From positions 1-10,893 of the forward strand of contig JBHHYO010000083.1 in NCBI GenBank assembly GCA_046757665.1: 10,893 bases of DNA. Direction: 5' to 3'. Source of the stretch: Nitrospinales bacterium (GTDB taxonomy: Bacteria; Nitrospinota; Nitrospinia; Nitrospinales; JAJDAT01). The translations under genes were made by a program, and so were the position numbers. The notes beneath the pieces are model-generated. The model had not been told where the DNA came from. It ran no database searches and was given only the letters and a program-made list of their open reading frames with translations. Below, piece after piece: positions 3,006 through 10,893 of the stretch (the first letter of the stretch is position 1; the number at the start of each line of letters is the position of its first letter).

Positions 3006-3884
3006 TCAGCCCCACGCTTCCTGAAAGCGTTTGAGGAACGAGCCGTCCATCCGGGTGGACCCGAAAGAGTTCCTTTGCGGGATGTTGTAGCCATGAAAAT
3101 CCCGGCTACCGGTGGGAATCAGGTCATATCGGGCGGTCAGTTCCAGGAAAAAATCGACAATGCCGATTTTTTCGTGGTAGGGGTAGATACATTCCAATCC
3201 CATCAGTCCGAACGACTTCAATTCCTCCACCATGCCGGGGATATCCTTGAAGTCCCGTCCCTTTGCGGGATTGTAAAGGGAGTATTGTCTTTCGCCCGGA
3301 TGGGCGACGACGGGGATGCCGCCGCTTTGCCGGATCATGCGGAGGGCTTCCTGGGCGGTCAAGTTTCTTTTCTCAATATTATACGGCTGGAGATATTTGT
3401 CGAAGGCTTCGAAAGTGTTGGCGACGATTTTCAGCCGGACCATTTCTTTTGCCAGGTGAGGGCGGCCGAGAACGCCCTCGGCGGCCCGCTTCACGTTGTC
3501 GAAATGAATGGCGCCCTTGAACGGGTCGGCCACTACCGCGTTGATTTTATCGATCATCGTCAACATGCGGGCCTCGCGCTGTTGTTGCATGGCCGCTACC
3601 GTGTCCCCGAGTTCGGCGGATATGGATTCGGTGGATTTAAAATAAGCGAGCAGGTGGAGGTGAAAATCGCGGTATTTTACGGTGATTTCGATTCCCGGAA
3701 AGGCGGTGATTCCCGCGGGTTCCGCCGCGGCCATGAATTCCTCGATTCCCTTGAACGTGTCGTGGTCCGTAAGGGATAAAATGGATACTTGTTTCTGTTG
3801 GGCCAGTTCTACCAAGGCGGGAGGGGAGAATTCTCCATCGGAAAAGGTGGAGTGCATGTGGATTTCGGATTTGACAACCTTCAT
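3006..3884 (-). CDS. PHP-domain metal-dependent phosphoesterase (TrpH/YciV-like)
   Basis: HMHSTFSDG, LTDHDT, GIEI, HLLAY, GRPHLA, AHP and GSRDFHG motifs. The start is placed at ATG 3884 (MKVVKSEIHMH); the track starts at 3926. Confidence 0.92.
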   Translation of the reverse strand: MKVVKSEIHMHSTFSDGEFSPPALVELAQQKQVSILSLTDHDTFKGIEEFMAAAEPAGITAFPGIEITVKYRDFHLHLLAYFKSTESISAELGDTVAAMQQQREARMLTMIDKINAVVADPFKGAIHFDNVKRAAEGVLGRPHLAKEMVRLKIVANTFEAFDKYLQPYNIEKRNLTAQEALRMIRQSGGIPVVAHPGERQYSLYNPAKGRDFKDIPGMVEELKSFGLMGLECIYPYHEKIGIVDFFLELTARYDLIPTGSRDFHGYNIPQRNSFGSTRMDGSFLKRFQEAWG

Positions 3885-3971
3885 GGACTGTTTCCCAAGG
3901 GACGGCCTTTGCCGGGCGGAAAACATTTCGGCCCGAAGCGCGGGAAGTTGCTCCCGCTTTTAATCAGTTAA

Positions 3972-4000
3972 ATTATATTCGATTTTGCCGGGCAATGAAA
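3972..4000 (-). promoter_or_regulatory. Possible sigma70 promoter for the PHP gene
   Basis: Perfect TATAAT on the minus strand (plus-strand ATTATA 3972-3977) in the divergent intergenic region. The -35 at 17 nt spacing is weak (TTTCAT). Confidence 0.35.
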
Positions 4001-4067
4001 CAAATCCTTGGGATAAACGGCGAAACCCGGCGGCGGTTGTATTATTGTGCGCCAAGGACCAATTGCT

Positions 4068-4097
4068 TTGACCGACATTTTTCGATAACCTGACAAT
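4068..4097 (+). promoter_or_regulatory. Possible sigma70 promoter for the cytochrome-dsbA-ctpA cluster
   Basis: TTGACC (4068-4073), 18-nt spacer, GACAAT (4092-4097), about 40 nt upstream of ATG 4139. Confidence 0.4.
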
Positions 4098-4138
4098 CAG
4101 GGAAATTTTTTTGACGTGATTTCAAATCCGCGATTTTT

Positions 4139-5443
4139 ATGAGAAAATTCTGTTTTTCCGTGCTGGCCGCCATTGTTTTGTGGTGGGGGTTGGCCTCTGC
4201 CACGAAAACGGCTGACCTGCTGATTTTGTATACAGGCAACACGTTTGGCGAACTGAAGCCCTGCGGTTGCGCCAAGGAGGAGGATCAAGGGGGGATTGAA
4301 AGGCGCGCCGCTTATTTTAAGGAAGTCCGTTCGGGAACGAGAAATGTTCTCCTGCTGGACAGCGGCGACAGTTTCAAGGAACCCACGGTGCAGGGGAAAA
4401 TCAAGGCCCGGTACTTGATGCGAAGCATGGCGCGGATGAATTATGATGCCGTGGTTCCGGGAGACAAGGATTTTGTTTATGGCACCCGGTTTCTCGGCGA
4501 GTTGAAGGGGATTCCCTGGGTCGCCGCGAATTTGGTGTCACCGGCGCCGGTTTTACCTCCTTACCAAATCAAGCGGTTCGAAAACGGGCTTGCCGTTGCT
4601 ATTGTGGGCCTGGTGGCCCCGGAGCTTTTTTATGCCGGACCCCATACGGATATTCATGTCCGGGCTCCGCGGGAAACGCTGGAAAATTTGTTGCCGGGGC
4701 TACGGCAAAAGGAGCATCCGGACCTCGTCATCTTGTTGACGCATATGCCGCGGCAACGAGCGCTGGATTTCCTGGACGTGGCGGGCGTGGATGTCGTCAT
4801 CAACGGGCACATCGAAAAAGCCACGGACCTCATCGACATGACTCCAGTGCGCCGCGCCGAAAGGATTTTTGCGCAGGCCGGGCCGCGGGGGCAAAAGGTG
4901 GGCGAACTGCGGGTGACGCTTGACGCGGCGGGTAAAAAACATTTTCAACAGCGGATGGTCAAGCTGGATTCCCATGTGAAATTCGATCCTGAAATGGTAA
5001 AGTTGTATGGCGAATATAATGAAAAGATCGAGGAGATATTTTTTGCCGCCCTGGCCGCCAAAAAAAATAAGGGCCGGGAAAAAAATTACGCTACGGAGAC
5101 GGTGTGCAAACAATGCCATGCCGAGGCCCATGACATCTGGTCCCGGTCACGGCACGCCGGGGCCTATGCCACTTTGCAAAAAGTGAACAAAGCTTTCGAC
5201 CCGGAATGCCTGGTGTGCCATACGGTTGGGTTTGGCCGGCCGGGGGGGTTTTTGAGCGAAACGGACACCCCGGAACTGGAAAACGTGCAATGCGAGGTCT
5301 GCCACGGCCCGGGTCTGGCGCATTCGCGTGCGCCGCGGCGGGGGTGGAGCCAGCCGGCCCGTCAGGCGTGCAAACGTTGCCACGTCAAAAACCACAGTCC
5401 GCGGTTTGATTACGCGGATTACTGGCCGCGGATAAAACATTGA
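4139..5443 (+). CDS. Exported fusion: UshA/5'-nucleotidase-like metallophosphoesterase-fold domain (CGC motif) plus C-terminal tetraheme c-type cytochrome (c554-like)
   Basis: Signal peptide ending near LASA; ILYTGNTFGELKPCGC...GGIERRAAY; LLLDSGD; WVAANL; ILLTH; VDVVINGH. Four CxxCH motifs: CKQCH 5105-5119, CLVCH 5207-5221, CEVCH 5291-5305, CKRCH 5369-5383. Confidence 0.9.
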   Translation: MRKFCFSVLAAIVLWWGLASATKTADLLILYTGNTFGELKPCGCAKEEDQGGIERRAAYFKEVRSGTRNVLLLDSGDSFKEPTVQGKIKARYLMRSMARMNYDAVVPGDKDFVYGTRFLGELKGIPWVAANLVSPAPVLPPYQIKRFENGLAVAIVGLVAPELFYAGPHTDIHVRAPRETLENLLPGLRQKEHPDLVILLTHMPRQRALDFLDVAGVDVVINGHIEKATDLIDMTPVRRAERIFAQAGPRGQKVGELRVTLDAAGKKHFQQRMVKLDSHVKFDPEMVKLYGEYNEKIEEIFFAALAAKKNKGREKNYATETVCKQCHAEAHDIWSRSRHAGAYATLQKVNKAFDPECLVCHTVGFGRPGGFLSETDTPELENVQCEVCHGPGLAHSRAPRRGWSQPARQACKRCHVKNHSPRFDYADYWPRIKH

Positions 5444-5484
5444 CCCGCGCCAACACTCCCATGTCTTGAACAAGGAGATTATTC

Positions 5485-6108
5485 ATGAAACGAATTTTCG
5501 TTGCCTTTGTGGCCCTGTTGGTCTGCCTGCCCGTCGTTGCTTGCGCGCAGGACAAGATCAAGGGCAAATACGAGGTCATCGGTTCCCTCGACAGGCTCAA
5601 GGGAGCCAAACAAATCGAGATGATCGAATTTTTCAATTATTCCTGCGGCCATTGTTACAAATTTCTGGAAAGCTCCAAGCGCCTGCGGGAAAAATACAAG
5701 GACAAACTGCATCACAAGAAGTATCCCATCTACTGGGGAGGCCAGACATCCTACCCGGCAATGGCTTTTTACATTGCCGATGAACAGGGCGTCGAGGAAC
5801 AGTTCACCCAGGAGATGTTCGATACGAATTTCAAAATGCAGATCAACATTTTTCAACCCAAGGTGATCAAATTTCTGGCCCGCGAATTTCACATTGAAAA
5901 AGCCATGACGGACGGAATGCAGTCCGAGCGGATCAAGGATAAAGTCAAACAATCGCTGGATTTTGCCAAGCAGTACAACGCCAATGAAACCCCGACGGTT
6001 ATCATCAACAAGGTTCTGAAGGTGACGCCCCGCATCGCCGGTGGAGATATAGAGAAGATGACCCAGGACCTGGAAGTTATTTTCGACGACATTCTCGGTA
6101 AGAAATGA
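5485..6108 (+). CDS. dsbA: Periplasmic DsbA-family thiol:disulfide oxidoreductase
   Basis: SD AAGGAG upstream; signal peptide; EFFNYSCGHCY (CxxC at 5644-5655); cis-Pro loop ETPTVIIN; 207 aa. Confidence 0.85.
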   Translation: MKRIFVAFVALLVCLPVVACAQDKIKGKYEVIGSLDRLKGAKQIEMIEFFNYSCGHCYKFLESSKRLREKYKDKLHHKKYPIYWGGQTSYPAMAFYIADEQGVEEQFTQEMFDTNFKMQINIFQPKVIKFLAREFHIEKAMTDGMQSERIKDKVKQSLDFAKQYNANETPTVIINKVLKVTPRIAGGDIEKMTQDLEVIFDDILGKK

Positions 6109-7697
6109 ATTTTCCGAACTCACCACAATGGAAACGGGGTATCCGCAAGTTTGCGGTTGGCGCCGCCGTTGCGCTGGTTTGTTTTTTTCTGTATTCCCCG
6201 GGCGGTTTTTGGGGAAGCGCGGAGCATTTCCCGGCCCCTGTTCACGCGGGATTTTTCAGCGATGATCTGGAATTGTTCGATGAGGTGTTGACGCTGATAT
6301 CGGACCGTTATGTTTACGAGCCCGACTACAAAAAGATTTTTTCCTCCGCCATTGAGGAGATGCTCAGCACCGCCGGTCTGGAAAATCTGATTTTCGAAAA
6401 CACAGGTTCGGGGCAAACCATCATCAAGGGCGCGCGCGAGGTTTCTTATCAGTTGAACACCAACCGGTCGCATGACCTGCGGGCATTCAAGCATGTGTAT
6501 TATTTTCTGGCAGACGAATTCAAGGGGTCGCCGGACAAAAAAGAGTTGGAAGTTGCCGGAATCGTTGGAATGATGAAGGCATTGGACCCGTTTTCGCAGT
6601 ATCTGGACAAGGAGCTGTTCAAAAAATCCATGCGCGATACGGAAGGCCGGTACGGCGGCCTGGGCATGGTGATCACCTTGAAGGATTTGCAACTCACCGT
6701 TGTGCGCACAATGAAAAACTCGCCCGCCCGCCGCGCCCACATCCTGCCGGACGACATTATCACCCACATCGACGGGAAATCGACTAAAGGACTGCAAATC
6801 GACGAGCTGGCTTCCCGGTTGCGGGGATTGTCCAAGACCAAGGTTACCCTGACGATTTTTCGCCCCGGCACCCGGGAGAAAAAGACCTACACGCTGACGC
6901 GGGAAATCATTTCGGTGGAAACGGTCAGCTATAAACCTCTCGGTCGCACCGGGTACATCAAGATCACCAGTTTTTCAAAACAAACCAACAAGCAACTGAA
7001 ACGGGCGCTTCGGGAGGGCTTGCTGGACGGGGTGAAATCTTTCATCCTGGACCTGCGCAACAATCCCGGCGGACTTTTGGACCAATCGGTCCACGTTGCC
7101 AGCCACTTTCTGACGCAGGGTCAAATGGTGGTTTATACCCAGGGGCGCGACAAGGATGACCGGCGGGAATACCGGGCCATCTACCGGAAAAATTTCAACC
7201 GATACCCGATGATTATCTTGATCAACCAGCACAGCGCCAGCGCCGCGGAAATCGTCGCCGGTGCGCTCAGGGATTCCGGGCGCGCCCTGATCGTCGGTGA
7301 AAAATCATACGGCAAGGGAACCGTGCAAACCATTTTTCGCATCCGGGACGGCTCCGGATTGCGGATCACGACGTCAAAATATTACACGCCCTCGGGGATC
7401 GACATTACGCGGGAAAAAATCGTCCCCGAAATCAGGATCGTCGATGATCTGTTGCACAAGACGGGAGACTCGTTTCTGGCCGATGTGGACAGCCCGCACA
7501 AGTTGTTTTACGAAACGTCCATCAGTCTCAAGAAATCCGATGTGGAAAAATTTCTGAAAGAACGGGGAAAGACGGTTGACAGAGAAAATGACCCTGTTGT
7601 TTTGTTCGCCCAGATGATTTTGCAAGATTCCACCACTGCCAGCAAAAGCTACGCCCTGGCCAAGGCGCGGGAGCTTGCGGCCAATATCCTTTATTGA
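6105..7697 (+). CDS. ctpA: S41A carboxyl-terminal processing protease (CtpA/Prc family)
   Basis: N-terminal hydrophobic segment; LDPFSQYL; PDZ domain (YGGLGMVI...SPARRAHILPDDIITHIDG); GYIKITSF; ILDLRNNPGGLL; catalytic Ser in SASAAEI (7239-7241) and Lys in YGKGTVQ (7314-7316). ATGA overlap with the dsbA stop. Confidence 0.93.
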   Translation: MNFPNSPQWKRGIRKFAVGAAVALVCFFLYSPGGFWGSAEHFPAPVHAGFFSDDLELFDEVLTLISDRYVYEPDYKKIFSSAIEEMLSTAGLENLIFENTGSGQTIIKGAREVSYQLNTNRSHDLRAFKHVYYFLADEFKGSPDKKELEVAGIVGMMKALDPFSQYLDKELFKKSMRDTEGRYGGLGMVITLKDLQLTVVRTMKNSPARRAHILPDDIITHIDGKSTKGLQIDELASRLRGLSKTKVTLTIFRPGTREKKTYTLTREIISVETVSYKPLGRTGYIKITSFSKQTNKQLKRALREGLLDGVKSFILDLRNNPGGLLDQSVHVASHFLTQGQMVVYTQGRDKDDRREYRAIYRKNFNRYPMIILINQHSASAAEIVAGALRDSGRALIVGEKSYGKGTVQTIFRIRDGSGLRITTSKYYTPSGIDITREKIVPEIRIVDDLLHKTGDSFLADVDSPHKLFYETSISLKKSDVEKFLKERGKTVDRENDPVVLFAQMILQDSTTASKSYALAKARELAANILY

Positions 7698-7939
7698 TGA
7701 ATATTATCGACATCGATTTTGAAAAGGGCACCGTTCACTGCGATTACAAGGAGTGGAAGATCGTTTCCAACAACAACAATCAATACCTGTTGTTGCAACG
7801 CGAGGAAAACGGGCGTTTTCACGCGGCGGAAGCGGAAGTGAAGCGCAAGCAGATGTTCGAGGTGAAGGAAATCGCCTACCGCGGCCCGAACGGTGAAACG
7901 TTTGTGTTCGATCCCGAATCCGGAATCATAAAAATCTGA
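7697..7939 (+). CDS. Hypothetical protein (80 aa)
   Basis: TGATG stop/start overlap with ctpA, protein-like composition, followed by a hairpin. No family recognised. Confidence 0.75.
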   Translation: MNIIDIDFEKGTVHCDYKEWKIVSNNNNQYLLLQREENGRFHAAEAEVKRKQMFEVKEIAYRGPNGETFVFDPESGIIKI

Positions 7940-7942
7940 CCA

Positions 7943-7970
7943 CCCCCTCCCCCTGATCCAGGAAAGGGGG
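7943..7970. terminator. GC-rich imperfect hairpin between convergent genes (possible bidirectional terminator or REP-like element)
   Basis: CCCCCT (7943-7948) pairs with AGGGGG (7965-7970), and CCTG pairs with CAGG around an ATC loop. No clear U-tract. Confidence 0.45.
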
Positions 7971-7983
7971 GATGCTTGCCACG

Positions 7984-8358
7984 TTATTCCTCCGGGAAGT
8001 AAGTGTCCTGGTCGGCGAAGACGGGCGGGGAATGGAAGTTGAGCATCTCCAGGGATTCGTGGCGTGTTTGAAACCGGTGCAGGGTGCGCGGCGGTACGCG
8101 GAAAAAACATCCCGGACGCAGATGAAATTCCTCGTCACCCAGAACGGCGACGCCTTCGCCGGACAACACGTAGTACAGTTCCTCGCCCGATTTGTGAAAG
8201 CTCGGTTTCTTTTCCTGGTGGGGCTTCATGATGACTCGATACGCGGAAAACCGGGCGCAGTATTCCCTGCCCAGCAACTGTTCGATCTCGATGCCCTTCA
8301 AGCGGAAAACTCCGCCACCGTCCGGTTCGACAAATACGACCTTTTTCGTGGGGTCCAT
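7984..8358 (-). CDS. Cupin-domain protein (Cupin_2-like)
   Basis: SFHKSGEELYYVLSGEGVAVLGDEEFHLRPG and FRVPPRTLHRF cupin motifs; 124 aa. Confidence 0.9.
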   Translation of the reverse strand: MDPTKKVVFVEPDGGGVFRLKGIEIEQLLGREYCARFSAYRVIMKPHQEKKPSFHKSGEELYYVLSGEGVAVLGDEEFHLRPGCFFRVPPRTLHRFQTRHESLEMLNFHSPPVFADQDTYFPEE

Positions 8359-8382
8359 TTTTTGTTCGCGGGTTTTGTTTGA

Positions 8383-9480
8383 CTATTCTACGACGCGCAG
8401 TTCCTTGAGGACGTCTCCCGACCATTCAAAAGCCAGGCGCGTCCGGTTCCGGGAAAGCTTTTTCTGAAAAGCGTATCCGTACAGGAGGGGCAGGGAAACG
8501 CTGGGTTCCACGAAGGCCATGGCGAAGTTGGCCTCCTTGTTGATTTTCCCCCAGGACTGGGCTTCCCCCAGCGTACTGCCGCTCAGCCCGCCCCAATGCG
8601 GGGAATCGGTGGTCACCTGCAGGGCGTACTTGTGGCCGCCGGTATTTTTCCCGAAAATATAGGCCATGACAATGGAATCGTTGATGTAGTTTTTCGGTAC
8701 GCCGCCGGCGACGTAAAAAGCCGCCGTCCTTGAGGACTTGACCACCGCCTGGGTGATCTCATAGTTGTCGCGGATGGCGTTGAGGGTGATGGGTGTCTTG
8801 CCTTCGCTCCTGGTGATGTAGTAGTGTTCGGCCAGGCCGATGCCGATGCTGGAATCGCTGATGGCAGGGCAGAAAATGGGAACGCCCTGTTTGCGGGCGG
8901 TTACCAGAATGGAGTCGTCGTCGTCAATGGTCTCGGACAATTTGTATAAAAACTCGCGGCTGGAGTAATCCCTCGGTTCCAGGGTGCCCGCGAAATTGCC
9001 GATCAGGGTGTCGTATTCGCCGAACAGCTCTTCGTCGATGTAAGTGTCGTAGATGCGGTTGATGTACAAATCCCGCAGGCGCTTGTCGTCGGCGTTGGGT
9101 TGGCCGCGGTAGTGGCCGCCGCCCTTGGCGGCATAAAAATCCTGGTACAGGATGGCGCCGGTGGAGACAATGAGGTCCACCATGTTGTAATGCACCATGT
9201 CGCGGATGACTTTTCGCAAACCGGCGGCGATCAGCGGACCGGCAAGGCCGAGCATGATGGTGGGCCTTTCGGGGTCCGCCAGCATCTTCTCGAATACGCC
9301 GGCGGCCAGCCCGATATTGCGGGCTTGAATCGAGGACGAGCCGAAGGCTTCCACCAGGTCGGCGACGCTGTGCGTTCGCTCGAAATCGACCTGGGAAATT
9401 TTCGTGTCCAGAACGGATTTCTTTTCCGTCCGCTCGGCCTCGCTCAAGGGCTTCGATTTCAAGAAGTCCTTATACAGCAT
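8383..9480 (-). CDS. Deoxyhypusine synthase-like protein (DHS family; possible homospermidine synthase activity)
   Basis: IVSTGAILYQD, NRIYDTYIDEE, PIFCPAISDSSIG, GGVPKNY and DSPHWGGLSGSTLGEAQSWGKI with the active-site Lys (K312). SD GAGGA upstream. Confidence 0.93.
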   Translation of the reverse strand: MLYKDFLKSKPLSEAERTEKKSVLDTKISQVDFERTHSVADLVEAFGSSSIQARNIGLAAGVFEKMLADPERPTIMLGLAGPLIAAGLRKVIRDMVHYNMVDLIVSTGAILYQDFYAAKGGGHYRGQPNADDKRLRDLYINRIYDTYIDEELFGEYDTLIGNFAGTLEPRDYSSREFLYKLSETIDDDDSILVTARKQGVPIFCPAISDSSIGIGLAEHYYITRSEGKTPITLNAIRDNYEITQAVVKSSRTAAFYVAGGVPKNYINDSIVMAYIFGKNTGGHKYALQVTTDSPHWGGLSGSTLGEAQSWGKINKEANFAMAFVEPSVSLPLLYGYAFQKKLSRNRTRLAFEWSGDVLKELRVVE

Positions 9481-9575: not shown

Positions 9576-10013
9576 CTACAATCGGGAACCAAGCTCGCTG
9601 GCGTGAGTTTCGGTGTTGACCTTGGGGATCACCTCGGCGATTGTGCCGTCTTCGTCGATCACGTAAGTGATGCGGGAAGCGTATTCATCTTCCGGGCTTT
9701 TAACCGCGCCGTAGGTTAGAGCGACGCGGCGGTCCACGTCGCACAACAGCGGGTAGGGCAGGGAAAATTTTTCCGCAAAGGCCTTGTTGTCCGCTTCGCT
9801 GTCCAGGCTGATGCCCAGGACGGCGATTTTTTTCTCCTCGAAAGCCCTGTACTCGTCGCGGAATCCCTGGCCTTCCATGGTGCAACCGGGGGTGTCCGCG
9901 CGCGGGTAAAACCACAGCACGACTTTGCGTCCGCGAAAGTCTTTCAAACTTACCGTATTGCCGTTGTGGTCCTTCACCGAAAAATCGGGAGCCTCCGTTC
10001 CAATCGACAGCAT
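9576..10013 (-). CDS. bcp: Peroxiredoxin, BCP/PrxQ family
   Basis: APDF, VSLKDFRGRKVVLWFYPRADTPGCT (PxxxTxxC) and RITYVIDEDG. Perfect SD AAGGAGG upstream. Confidence 0.92.
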   Translation of the reverse strand: MLSIGTEAPDFSVKDHNGNTVSLKDFRGRKVVLWFYPRADTPGCTMEGQGFRDEYRAFEEKKIAVLGISLDSEADNKAFAEKFSLPYPLLCDVDRRVALTYGAVKSPEDEYASRITYVIDEDGTIAEVIPKVNTETHASELGSRL

Positions 10014-10335: not shown

Positions 10336-10893
10336 TTACCCCCGGTGGACGCCGATGAACATCGTGTTTTCGCCCCGCTTTACCAGAAACAACACAACCC
10401 CCTTGTCGAGATTGGCGGTGATCCGCAGGTAATCGGCAAGGTTGGCGACGGGTTTTTGGTTTACCTCGGCAATGATGTCTCCGCGCCGCAACCCGGCCTC
10501 CGCCGCCGGCTTGTCGGGCATGATTTCGGAAATTATGACTCCCGCCACATCCTGCAATTTAAGCTGTTGCGCCTGTCTGCGGGTGATCTCCCGAATTTCC
10601 ATCCCCAATGACTTGTCAAAAGAGGCCAGGGGTTTCTCTCTGTCGGGAGCGGGAAGGGCGGTCAGTGTAACGTTCAGGGTTTTCATTTTTCGGTCGCGGA
10701 TGATTTGCACTTCGACCGCTTGCCCCGTCGGGGTGATCTGGATAGCCTTGGGTAAATCGCCCAGGACTCGGATGTAATGCGTGTCGAAGCGGACGATCAC
10801 GTCTCCTTGTTTGATTCCTCCCTTGTCCGCGGGACTGCCGGGTTTCACTTCGCCCACCAGGACACCGTTTGTTTCCACCAGGCCAAAGGCCTC
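10336..10893 (-). CDS. HtrA/DegP/DegQ (Do) family serine protease, C-terminal two PDZ domains (5'-truncated by the window edge)
   Basis: GVLVGEVKPGSPADKGGIKQGDVIV and GVIISEIMPDKPAAEAGLRRGDIIAEVNQKPV...LVKRG. The frame is open to the window end. The protease domain is not visible and is inferred from the tandem-PDZ architecture. Confidence 0.85.
   Translation of the reverse strand, partial: EAFGLVETNGVLVGEVKPGSPADKGGIKQGDVIVRFDTHYIRVLGDLPKAIQITPTGQAVEVQIIRDRKMKTLNVTLTALPAPDREKPLASFDKSLGMEIREITRRQAQQLKLQDVAGVIISEIMPDKPAAEAGLRRGDIIAEVNQKPVANLADYLRITANLDKGVVLFLVKRGENTMFIGVHRG

Follow-up and report, generated by a model that had tools for sequence, protein, structure and literature searches.

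A UshA-like C-G-C tetrahaem protein paired with a DsbA-like protein in Nitrospinota: a possible haem-linked route for DsbA re-oxidation

What does a periplasmic protein do that combines a nucleotidase fold, a close pair of cysteines and four c-type haem motifs? The question is raised by a gene in a 10,893-nucleotide stretch of DNA (the window; contig JBHHYO010000083.1 of assembly GCA_046757665.1) from a Nitrospinales bacterium of the phylum Nitrospinota. An earlier note on this DNA had proposed that a degenerate phosphoesterase site had been remodelled into a redox centre wired to haems. The gene occupies the only long open frame at its position and encodes a putatively secreted protein of 434 residues with the following features.

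4139..5443, forward strand: gene of the UshA-like CGC tetrahaem protein, 434 aa, stop codon counted in
4139..4201, forward strand: putative Sec signal peptide, residues 1–21, ending in GLASA before TK, read from the sequence
4202..4987, forward strand: 5′-nucleotidase/metallophosphoesterase-type N-domain with a degenerate dimetal site (N34-T35-F36, D77, G108-D-K-D111, H202, H224)
4262..4270, forward strand: C42-G43-C44, the family-invariant C-G-[C/Sec], proposed redox-active site
4988..5068, forward strand: long linker helix in the AlphaFold2 model, residues 284–310, as between the domains of 5′-nucleotidases
5069..5440, forward strand: cytochrome c554-like tetrahaem domain, residues 311–434 (PF13435; 1bvb match)
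5105..5119, forward strand: haem motif 1, CKQCH (C323-H327), in 73/73 family members
5153..5155, forward strand: H339, candidate distal haem ligand, 73/73
5207..5221, forward strand: haem motif 2, CLVCH (C357-H361), 73/73
5291..5305, forward strand: haem motif 3, CEVCH (C385-H389), 73/73
5321..5323, forward strand: H395, candidate distal haem ligand, 73/73
5369..5383, forward strand: haem motif 4, CKRCH (C411-H415), 72–73/73
5438..5440, forward strand: H434, the last residue, candidate distal haem ligand, 70/73

The signal peptide and four CxxCH motifs of the earlier note are recovered by sequence reading, and its 5′-nucleotidase-like domain by Foldseek. The hydrophobic N-terminus, which is the sole hydrophobic stretch of the protein, ends by eye at ASA before TK and contains a helix at residues 2–16 in the AlphaFold2 model. 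In Pfam, the protein matches Cytochrome_C554 (PF13435) with an E value of 1.2e-16 (61.8 bits versus a cut-off of 20.8), and its Metallophos score of 20.9 bits is slightly short of the gathering cut-off of 21.5. The nucleotide-binding C-domain 5_nucleotid_C gave no Pfam match at E values up to 1, and the DsbB, VKOR and MauE models (PF02600, PF07884 and PF07291) are absent from the Pfam matches of the protein. A profile search of the PDB identified a 5′-nucleotidase-type N-domain (E 1e-13) and matched the haem domain to cytochrome c554 (1bvb, E 8.5e-12). The tetrahaem domain is a replacement of the nucleotide-binding C-domain of 5′-nucleotidases. The four-haem module resembles that of Nitrosomonas cytochrome c554, with fewer conserved distal His residues than haems, but the protein is not an orthologue (32.5 bits versus a cut-off of 400 for Cyt554_Nsmonas, NF043010).

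The AlphaFold2 model was built on a 40-row alignment and exhibits high pLDDT in the N-domain. Foldseek matched this domain to CD73, UshA and the Thermus 5′-nucleotidase (E 6e-22 to 5e-20), the best match having an E value of 6e-22 and a TMq of 0.55 over about 313 columns. The N-domain superposes on those of CD73 and UshA, and past the linker helix comes the haem domain, where these enzymes have their substrate-binding domain. The protein shares with UshA, CD73 and SoxB the N-domain fold, the GGxxRR helix, the linker helix and residual motif positions, but it lacks motif I and the catalytic His and carries a cytochrome for the C-terminal substrate domain; the UshA profile scores 37.4 bits versus a cut-off of 600, and that of the SoxB thiosulfohydrolase (TIGR04486) 52.8 bits versus 550. 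The CGC loop (residues 41–49) and the haem domain (residues 312–434) have pLDDT values below 50, and models of cytochromes made without haem stay poor. A complex prediction with residues 22–434, four haems and residues 24–207 of the DsbA-like protein encoded downstream, run without controls, scored 0.00 and gave no answer.

Judged by its sequence, the 434-residue protein is related, in a Cys form, to NF041198 (UshA_like_PCGU), a family of UshA-like (seleno)proteins. The NCBIfam model matches with an E value of 7.9e-81 and 272.2 bits, 2.8 bits short of its cut-off of 275. A genuine TGA-bearing member from Blastocatellia (L016) scores 262.4 bits, likewise under 275, which shows that the family extends below the cut-off. 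The architecture corresponds from end to end, with a degenerate 5′-nucleotidase N-domain, a P-C-G-[U/C] motif that follows strand 1 and a tetrahaem domain at the C-terminus; the protein differs in being the Cys form, in being shorter than the 519-position model and in its score just under the equivalog cut-off. Model positions 347–519 align to residues 266–426, so the model covers the tetrahaem domain. The fusion to a tetrahaem domain that the earlier note had highlighted is therefore present, but the whole family is normally built in this way, and nothing about it is special to this gene. The note had also rightly pointed to a UshA-like CxU/CxC family of no known function (NF041198, E 8e-81). 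This family is catalogued in PMC2398784, PMC9312934 and PMC13188914, without a function in the available parts of these sources, and is named ‘COG0737 UshA-like, CxU’ by Zhang and Gladyshev in 2008 (PMC2398784). In the literature outside subscription journals, no paper was found that gives the family a function or ties it to DsbA.

The codons TGC-GGT-TGC lie at exactly 4262–4270, where the earlier note had placed the CGC motif, and encode C42-G43-C44 in the context K-P-C42-G-C44. PCGC and exactly four CxxCH motifs are found in all 120 close homologues among the matches listed, and of 80 genome loci spread over many phyla, 77 show C-G-C or C-G-TGA, the remaining three being a fragment, a locus that was not parsed and a non-member. 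Because the CGC and the four haem motifs are kept in these homologues, and the C-G-C or C-G-TGA in these loci, they are not a product of chance. Cys/Sec exchange, which the earlier note had considered, was observed as an in-frame TGA precisely in place of the second Cys codon in 12 loci with a clean reading frame and in a 13th (L048). Such exchange is typical of redox-active residues. The family comprises 983 cluster representatives at E values up to 1e-30, and its gene is present in 55 of the 57 high-quality Nitrospinota genomes.

Across 73 diverse members, the invariant residues are C42, G43, C44/Sec, G51, G52, G76, the four CxxCH motifs, H339 and H395; with H434 (70/73), only three non-motif His residues are conserved family-wide for four haems. 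The canonical metal-ligand positions (34, 36, 77, 109, 202 and 224) vary freely across the same members in an alignment that was made with fast mafft settings and is rough in the H202–H224 region. Within the clade of the window's protein, the picture is mixed. The motifs read NTF, DSGD, GDKD, LTH and GHIE, as previously described. Motif I (N34-T35-F36) aligns to columns that are D-[IVT]-H in some Sec-form relatives; position 34 is N, Q, M, S or H and position 36 is F, L, M or I in the clade, and the D-x-H that holds two M1 ligands is missing. In motif II (G76-D77), the DSGD bridging Asp is invariant within the clade but not family-wide. Motif III reads G108-D-K-D111 instead of G-N-H-[ED], with K, H, R or L at the catalytic-His position. 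Motifs IV and V are kept, H202 (LTH) being invariant and H224 (GHIE) nearly invariant in the clade, and both vary family-wide. The remodelling of the dimetal site claimed in the earlier note thus holds in that the site is degenerate and family-wide conservation is limited to the C-x-C/U and the haems, but four M2-site ligand positions (D77, D109, H202 and H224) survive in the clade. Since the clade conserves D77, D/E109, D111, H202 and H224, a metal may still be bound there. The family-wide conservation of the CxC/Sec and haems, but not of the metal ligands, makes a redox role likelier than that of a nucleotidase, in line with the oxidoreductase of the earlier note; nothing points to the sensor that it had offered beside it.

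The earlier note lacked the most informative feature of the locus, a conserved DsbA-like partner encoded 42 nt downstream.

5472..5477, forward strand: AAGGAG ribosome-binding site, 7 nt 5′ of the DsbA-like ATG
5485..6108, forward strand: DsbA-like thiol:disulfide oxidoreductase, 207 aa, with a signal peptide, proposed redox partner
5644..5655, forward strand: C54-G-H-C57 (CGHC) active-site motif of the DsbA-like protein
6105..7697, forward strand: S41 C-terminal processing peptidase, its start overlapping the DsbA-like stop by 4 nt

The best NCBIfam matches of the DsbA-like protein are DsbA models over their full length. Both CGHC cysteines are invariant in 12 of 12 orthologues, as is the cis-Pro-type loop at T169-P170. 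A promoter/terminator scan of 3900–8400 returned counts at chance level and no terminator-like site in the 42-nt gap between the UshA-like and DsbA-like genes. The 4-nt overlap makes the S41 peptidase the probable third member of the operon; its linkage is found only inside the phylum (the window and five loci). In 100 of the 103 Nitrospinota genomes that bear the UshA-like gene (bearers), the DsbA-like gene comes next downstream in the same orientation, after a gap of 13–302 nt. It is also directly downstream in six Nitrospirota/Thermodesulfobacteriota loci whose UshA-like protein is only ∼30% identical, and upstream in a Pseudohongiella locus.

The pairing extends to single polypeptides. Among 20 long family representatives, eight contain a DSBA domain and eight a DUF1573 domain, and the UshA-like protein is fused to DSBA at two Poribacteria loci. 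At one further locus, a TlpA/redoxin gene abuts the UshA-like gene. In total, a thiol-redox partner is adjacent or fused in 30 of 73 loci; none was found within 700 nt in the other 43, with 104 of the 142 listed flanking and long ORFs scanned. Outside the DsbA and DUF1573 clades, the neighbours are lineage-specific housekeeping genes (DciA, Maf, an ABC transporter, ResB, LptD, AMP-binding enzymes and others), with no recurring genes of sulfur, selenium or nitrogen metabolism. The pairing and fusion with DsbA and DUF1573 constitute the first concrete functional lead for the UshA-like family.

On this sequence evidence, the 434-residue protein is tentatively proposed, at somewhat short of an even chance, to be a haem-linked thiol:disulfide oxidoreductase of the periplasm whose task is to re-oxidise the DsbA partner. 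The 5′-nucleotidase N-domain would serve as a scaffold only, and the working group would be the Cys42-Gly-Cys44 pair (Cys-Gly-Sec in other lineages), predicted to sit on the loop that directly follows what used to be metal motif I, at the edge of the one-time active site. There, the c554-like domain would take the place of the nucleotide-binding domain that closes over the site in 5′-nucleotidases. The reduced DsbA-like protein (CGHC) would pass two electrons to the CGC disulfide through thiol-disulfide exchange, and the nearest haem would then re-oxidise the CGC dithiol in two one-electron steps. This haem is probably five-coordinate or Cys/Sec-ligated because only three distal His residues are conserved for four haems. 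The haem chain would finally deliver the electrons to the periplasmic cytochrome pool, so that a soluble cytochrome would do the job performed elsewhere by membrane-bound DsbB, VKOR or MauE. We infer the exchange with DsbA, the electron direction, the haem chemistry and the downstream acceptor alike. Haem-driven S–S bond formation is established chemistry in TsdA and SoxAX; Cys or Sec ligation of a haem in the 434-residue protein, by comparison, is speculation.

The proposed job would be analogous to that of DsbB, VKOR and MauE, each of which takes electrons from a DsbA-type protein via a vicinal Cys pair. VKOR also occurs fused to a thioredoxin-fold partner, as the UshA-like family is fused to DsbA. 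The UshA-like protein differs in being non-homologous to these enzymes and without a membrane domain, and it would deliver the electrons to four c-type haems where those use a quinone. According to a recent preprint (bioRxiv 10.64898/2026.03.05.709764), the question of how DsbA is re-oxidised without DsbB or VKOR goes back to Dutton et al. 2008. The preprint reports MauE as a new DsbB replacement with a C-x-C active site in which Gly is the commonest middle residue, making it mostly C-G-C as in the UshA-like protein, and finds none of DsbB, VKOR and MauE in 20.1% of 20,704 species.

The genome of the window (97.6% complete) contains a DsbD-type reductive arm, and no DsbB, VKOR or CxC-bearing MauE was found in it. 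MauE was rejected as its missing oxidase; the only PF07291 match is a 136-residue DoxX protein (75 bits for DoxX versus 32.8 for MauE) that contains a single Cys and lacks a CxC. Across 120 Nitrospinota genomes, neither DsbB nor VKOR occurs in the bearer families f1–f6, and full-length MauE is absent from 80 of the 103 bearers and present in 23. The three genomes of family f7 are without the UshA-like gene and all possess VKOR; in G115, the only one of them with a DsbA-like match, this match and VKOR stand side by side within one open frame of 425 codons. The complementarity inside the phylum represents one or two evolutionary events and not 100 independent ones.

A second class (that of genome G001, 81 genomes) was tried for the same pattern, and no complementarity was observed; DsbB, VKOR or MauE is more frequent in bearers (10/23) than in non-bearers (11/58). 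DsbB is also found in two of five gammaproteobacterial bearers, one of which has a DsbA-like neighbour, and in one of five pair-bearing genomes of other phyla. Outside the phylum of the window, the UshA-like protein and DsbB or VKOR are thus not mutually exclusive, and given this co-occurrence it would be too simple to call the protein a stand-in for DsbB. The pathway that it serves may be a dedicated or a redundant one.

The partner evidence is blind to direction, and electrons could instead leave the haem chain through the CGC, reach the DsbA-like or DUF1573 partner and end up on periplasmic targets, which would make the protein a cytochrome-fed disulfide reductase or isomerase and a soluble counterpart of DsbD/CcdA. 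Such a reverse relay is rather unlikely. It would suit the Thermodesulfobacteriota, anammox Planctomycetes and Nitrospirota, in which the family is common and which include anaerobes with low-potential periplasmic cytochromes. It is also consistent with the TlpA/redoxin locus, proteins of this type usually acting reductively, and the co-occurrence with DsbB or VKOR in the second class fits a non-redundant reductive role. The genome of the window, however, already possesses a DsbD-type membrane reductant and is without every known oxidant, and the top matches of the partner are full-length DsbA models. A low-potential periplasmic donor would moreover be improbable in this lineage, which we take to be one of aerobic nitrite oxidisers.

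Two further readings concern the active site itself. The C-G-C/Sec might lie over an open haem as its Cys/Sec ligand, as in TsdA/SoxAX, or hold Cu, as in MccA, and act on inorganic sulfur, selenium or a similar substrate, with the DsbA-like protein only maturing or repairing the site. The three distal His residues for four haems argue for this small-molecule chemistry, C42 and C44/Sec being the sole other invariant side chains, as does the resemblance of the haem domain to cytochrome c554, which has a five-coordinate haem. Weak similarities to the SoxB family and MccA, the 43 of 73 loci without a nearby partner, and the clade-conserved D77, D109, D111, H202 and H224, which could hold a substrate or metal, point the same way. 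Nevertheless, the chemistry is likewise rather unlikely: conserved neighbours indicate sulfur, selenium or nitrogen metabolism in no clade, the SoxB score is far below its cut-off, and repeated independent fusions to DsbA and DUF1573 are hard to square with a maturation role. If the protein were an active phosphoesterase or nucleotidase of the periplasm with a cytochrome domain simply attached, this would explain the fold, the weak HMM matches to 5′-nucleotidases and cyclic-nucleotide phosphodiesterases and the M2-site positions kept in the clade. Such a reading is very improbable given N-T-F for D-x-H in motif I, Lys, His, Arg or Leu for the catalytic His of GNH(E/D), the absent substrate-binding C-domain and a family that conserves its CxC/Sec and haems but varies its metal ligands.

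If DsbA re-oxidation by the UshA-like protein is true, the making of disulfides with a c-type haem in the quinone's place would be a new route. Whatever the direction or substrate, a nucleotidase fold has been recruited as the scaffold for a Cys/Sec redox site. The family itself was already known, having been catalogued since 2008 as a selenoprotein without a function; the 73-member conservation pattern, the TGA loci, the DsbA synteny, the DsbA and DUF1573 fusions and the re-oxidase gap in the phylum are new here.

A broader and doubtful extension is that the UshA-like C-G-C/Sec tetrahaem proteins constitute a fourth class of enzymes that generate disulfides de novo, independent of quinones, and that DUF1573 is a previously unrecognised CxC disulfide carrier. 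Such a class would close the gap of DsbA without DsbB, VKOR or MauE in Nitrospinota and other phyla. A soluble periplasmic cytochrome would form the Cys–Cys (or Cys–Sec) bond at a haem and hand it to carriers of the DsbA or DUF1573 type. DUF1573 has itself been catalogued as a UGC selenoprotein, and each DUF1573 protein, whether fused to the UshA-like protein (8/8) or encoded beside it (12/12), contains one C-x-C.

P0001 is encoded by the sole long frame at its position in the window and consists of a putative hydrophobic leader ending in ASA (followed by TK), a 5′-nucleotidase-type N-domain and a tetrahaem C-terminal part with four CxxCH motifs at residues 323, 357, 385 and 411.

Features of the window (position, strand, description)
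1764–2951, +, 395-residue caspase-like protein (Peptidase_C14, E = 2.4e-10) with a hydrophobic N-terminus
3006–3926, −, PHP-domain protein, divergent, 213 nt upstream of the UshA-like gene
4139–5443, +, UshA-like protein P0001, 434 residues
4262–4270, +, C42-G-C44 of P0001 (TGC-GGT-TGC)
5485–6108, +, DsbA-like protein, 207 residues, 42 nt downstream of the P0001 gene, behind AAGGAG
6105–7697, +, S41 C-terminal processing peptidase (Ctp; PDZ and Peptidase_S41), ATG overlapping the DsbA-like stop codon by 4 nt
7691–8110, −, candidate 139-residue ORF without a Pfam match, overlapping the next ORF
7694–7939, +, candidate 81-residue ORF, recurring about 2.3 kb downstream of the UshA-like gene in five related loci
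8383–9480, −, full-length deoxyhypusine synthase-like gene (PF01916, E = 5e-83) in a bacterial host
9576–10013, −, Bcp-type peroxiredoxin, adjoining the deoxyhypusine synthase-like gene
10336–10893, −, HtrA/DegP-type protease (PDZ end), also beside the deoxyhypusine synthase-like gene

In the Pfam search, P0001 matched Cytochrome_C554 (E = 1.2e-16) and scored below the cut-off for Metallophos (20.9 versus 21.5 bits), and no 5′-nucleotidase C-terminal domain was found. The top NCBIfam match is NF041198, ‘UshA-like (seleno)protein’ (PCGU; E = 7.9e-81), at 272.2 bits, under the cut-off of 275, and the haem domain falls within the last 170 positions of this model. The AlphaFold2 model (mean pLDDT 70.7) is confident at residues ~22–310 and of low confidence in the CGC loop (residues 41–49) and the haem domain. 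The N-domain groups with those of CD73, UshA and other 5′-nucleotidases (Foldseek, E = 6e-22, TMq 0.55), and a PDB profile search likewise identified a 5′-nucleotidase-type N-domain and a C-terminal part similar to cytochrome c554. The observation of the earlier note, which had described these elements and the CGC motif, is thus borne out throughout.

P0001 adds a new Cys-form protein to an already catalogued family. Selenoprotein listings have included the UshA-like family since 2008, under a CxU motif and with no function assigned in its entries (PMC2398784, PMC9312934, PMC13188914); these listings and the NF041198 match show that the earlier note correctly named a CxU/CxC (seleno)protein family of unknown function. 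An exhaustive search yielded 983 family proteins at E up to 1e-30 (50%-identity representatives). PCGC and exactly four CxxCH motifs are present in 120 of 120 close homologues among the matches listed (52–86% identity), all named ones being Nitrospinota/Nitrospinaceae. From 557 relatives found in a genome-contig scan, 80 loci were kept, which originate from Nitrospinota, Gammaproteobacteria, Poribacteria, Blastocatellia, Planctomycetota (including anammox genera), Latescibacterota, Nitrospirota, Thermodesulfobacteriota and others. C-G-C or C-G-TGA is observed in 77 of these loci; of the remaining three, one is a fragment, one a locus in which frame extension failed and one a nine-haem non-member. 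The Cys/Sec exchange for which a survey had been suggested is seen at the second Cys: 12 loci contain a single in-frame TGA at this position and no further interruption up to the normal C-terminus, and a 13th, L048, carries C-G-TGA in the first of two tandem family genes (3763–6263). Among the 150 best representatives, the middle residue of C-x-C is mostly Gly, with N, T, A, E, R, D and others also found; 92 follow the strict P/V/T/A-CGC pattern, and the other 58 include N-terminally cut entries beginning right after the Sec position. The combination of a nucleotidase N-domain, CGC and tetrahaem domain is the norm of the family.

Conservation was counted over 73 diverse members (P0001 and 72 loci) aligned quickly with MAFFT, 8 of the 80 loci having been left out as fragments or badly extended. 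C42, G43, C44/Sec, G51, G52, G76, the four CxxCH motifs, H339 and H395 are invariant, and the C-terminal residue H434 is kept in 70 members. In the family as a whole, the positions of the canonical dimetal ligands are free to vary, and D-x-H is retained solely in some Sec forms, which lack the remaining ligands. Inside the window's own clade, D77, D/E109, D111, H202 and H224 are conserved, but conservation does not extend to motif I (N/Q/M/S/H-x-F/L/M/I) or to the catalytic His. The hydrolase site is degenerate, as had been claimed. Since C-x-C/Sec and the haems are invariant and the metal ligands variable, the 5′-nucleotidase fold reads as a scaffold on which the C-x-C/Sec and the haems are the selected features. 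The four haems have just three conserved distal His between them, and the two Cys are the sole other invariant side chains; one haem is therefore likely five-coordinate or Cys/Sec-ligated. The haem ligation of P0001 and a role for its residual D77/D109/H202/H224 site are putative. Motif I is kept as D-[IV]-H, with the other metal ligands gone, in the Blastocatellia Sec forms L016, L019, L020, L035 and L064, and a ResB (cytochrome c synthesis) gene lies near Blastocatellia Sec-form members at five loci.

The most widespread neighbour in ORF clustering around the loci is the DsbA-like gene: it occurs in 13, counting the window, and in each case directly downstream. Nitrospirota/Thermodesulfobacteriota account for six of the 13, with UshA-like proteins ~30% identical to P0001. 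The 207-residue protein matches Pfam DSBA (E = 6e-14), its top NCBIfam hits are DsbA models matched over the models' full length, and its CGHC and T-P loop are unchanged in each of 12 orthologues. In a 120-genome sample of the window's phylum, 103 genomes (55 of the 57 of high quality) bear the UshA-like gene, and in 100 of these bearers a DsbA-like gene follows on the same strand, 13–302 nt downstream. The S41 peptidase gene follows the pair in five related loci of the same phylum; given this order and the 4-nt overlap, the UshA-like, DsbA-like and Ctp genes probably form an operon.

Thiol-redox partners are also found elsewhere in the family. Of 20 long representatives, eight contain DSBA in the same polypeptide, eight an N-terminal DUF1573 and four neither. 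In 12 Planctomycetota/Poribacteria loci the gene immediately upstream encodes a DUF1573 protein, and each DUF1573 protein, fused (8/8) or neighbouring (12/12), contains one [ST]-C-x-C motif; DUF1573 is itself listed among selenoproteins, as UGC. A DsbA-like gene lies upstream at L015, DSBA is fused at L058 and L060, DUF1573 is the partner at L063, and the abutting gene at L076 is redoxin/TlpA-type. Counted over the 73 loci, a thiol-redox module is adjacent or fused in 30, and none was found within 700 nt in 43 (104 of 142 listed flanking and long ORFs scanned, the rest being clusters already annotated or opposite-strand shadows judged by eye). Three giant members of about 1,200 residues (P0131, P0134 and P0177) have an additional C-x-C on the N-terminal side (P-C-E/D-C), a DSBA domain within the chain, and the family's C-x-C and tetrahaem part at the C-terminus.

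We tentatively propose that P0001 would be a periplasmic thiol:disulfide (or selenenylsulfide) oxidoreductase. Its C-G-C would exchange with a dedicated carrier, in the window the DsbA-like protein, with which it may physically interact, and would be cycled by the tetrahaem chain, which would occupy the place of the mobile substrate domain that closes on the 5′-nucleotidase active site. In TsdA and SoxAX, S–S bond formation is driven by c-type haems. According to a recent preprint on the MauE C-x-C active site, a vicinal C-G-C can make disulfides for DsbA (bioRxiv 10.64898/2026.03.05.709764). In the literature outside most subscription journals, neither a link of the family to DsbA or DUF1573 carriers nor a proposal that it is a haem-based disulfide generator was found. 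The proposal addresses a long-unanswered question and lends itself to standard assays.

The window's genome (97.6% complete) holds a gene of DsbD type and two of DSBA type, and no match to DsbB or VKOR was found in it. Its only MauE-family match, a 136-residue DoxX protein (75 bits; L085 667–1077, contig G000:C15, − strand), has a single Cys and no CxC and was rejected. In the phylum sample, DsbB occurs in one genome and VKOR in three, all of family f7, in whose members G113, G114 and G115 VKOR is present throughout and the UshA-like gene is missing; both oxidases are absent from families f1–f6 (108 genomes, the window's own included). Near-full-length MauE is present in 24 of the 120 genomes, 23 of them bearers, with N-C-G-C-F-G in 4/4 proteins inspected; partial PF07291 matches (model positions ~2–90), probably DoxX, are not to be counted as MauE. 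Because f1–f6 have neither DsbB nor VKOR and only 23 bearers have MauE, 80 of the 103 bearers have no known DsbA oxidase, a gap that represents one or two events since the sampled genomes are kin. In G115, a DsbA-like match adjoins VKOR in a 425-codon open frame (G115:C191:1763-2920) that looks like a VKOR–thioredoxin-fold fusion and mirrors the UshA-like–DsbA fusions of other lineages.

A simple ‘DsbB substitute’ reading is opposed by the class of G001, a second lineage surveyed, in which 23 of 81 genomes bear the family (match E up to about 1e-44 in a ~400-residue frame; weaker matches, being lone tetrahaem proteins or ordinary nucleotidases, were not counted) and DsbB, VKOR or MauE occurs in 10 of 23 bearers versus 11 of 58 non-bearers. 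DsbB in two of five gammaproteobacterial bearers also counts against it. Among five pair-bearing genomes of other phyla, of unknown completeness, DsbB was found in one, and VKOR and above-cut-off MauE in none. The same relay run in reverse is unlikely; in the window's lineage the oxidising direction, from DsbA through CGC and haems to the cytochrome pool, would be favoured because the reductive arm is present, all known oxidants are absent and high-potential acceptors are available to an aerobic nitrite oxidiser. Likewise improbable is a small-molecule oxidoreductase acting on sulfur or selenium, with a Cys/Sec-haem or Cys-Cu site, for which DsbA would be a helper. A working phosphoesterase, for which the clade-conserved D77 and H202 might speak and the lost motif I and catalytic His do not, is hardly credible, and something else takes the remainder.

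Upstream of the P0001 gene, the divergent PHP-domain gene is arranged identically in 6/6 related loci of the phylum, and the caspase-like protein continues after its Peptidase_C14 domain into a Pro/Lys-rich tail.
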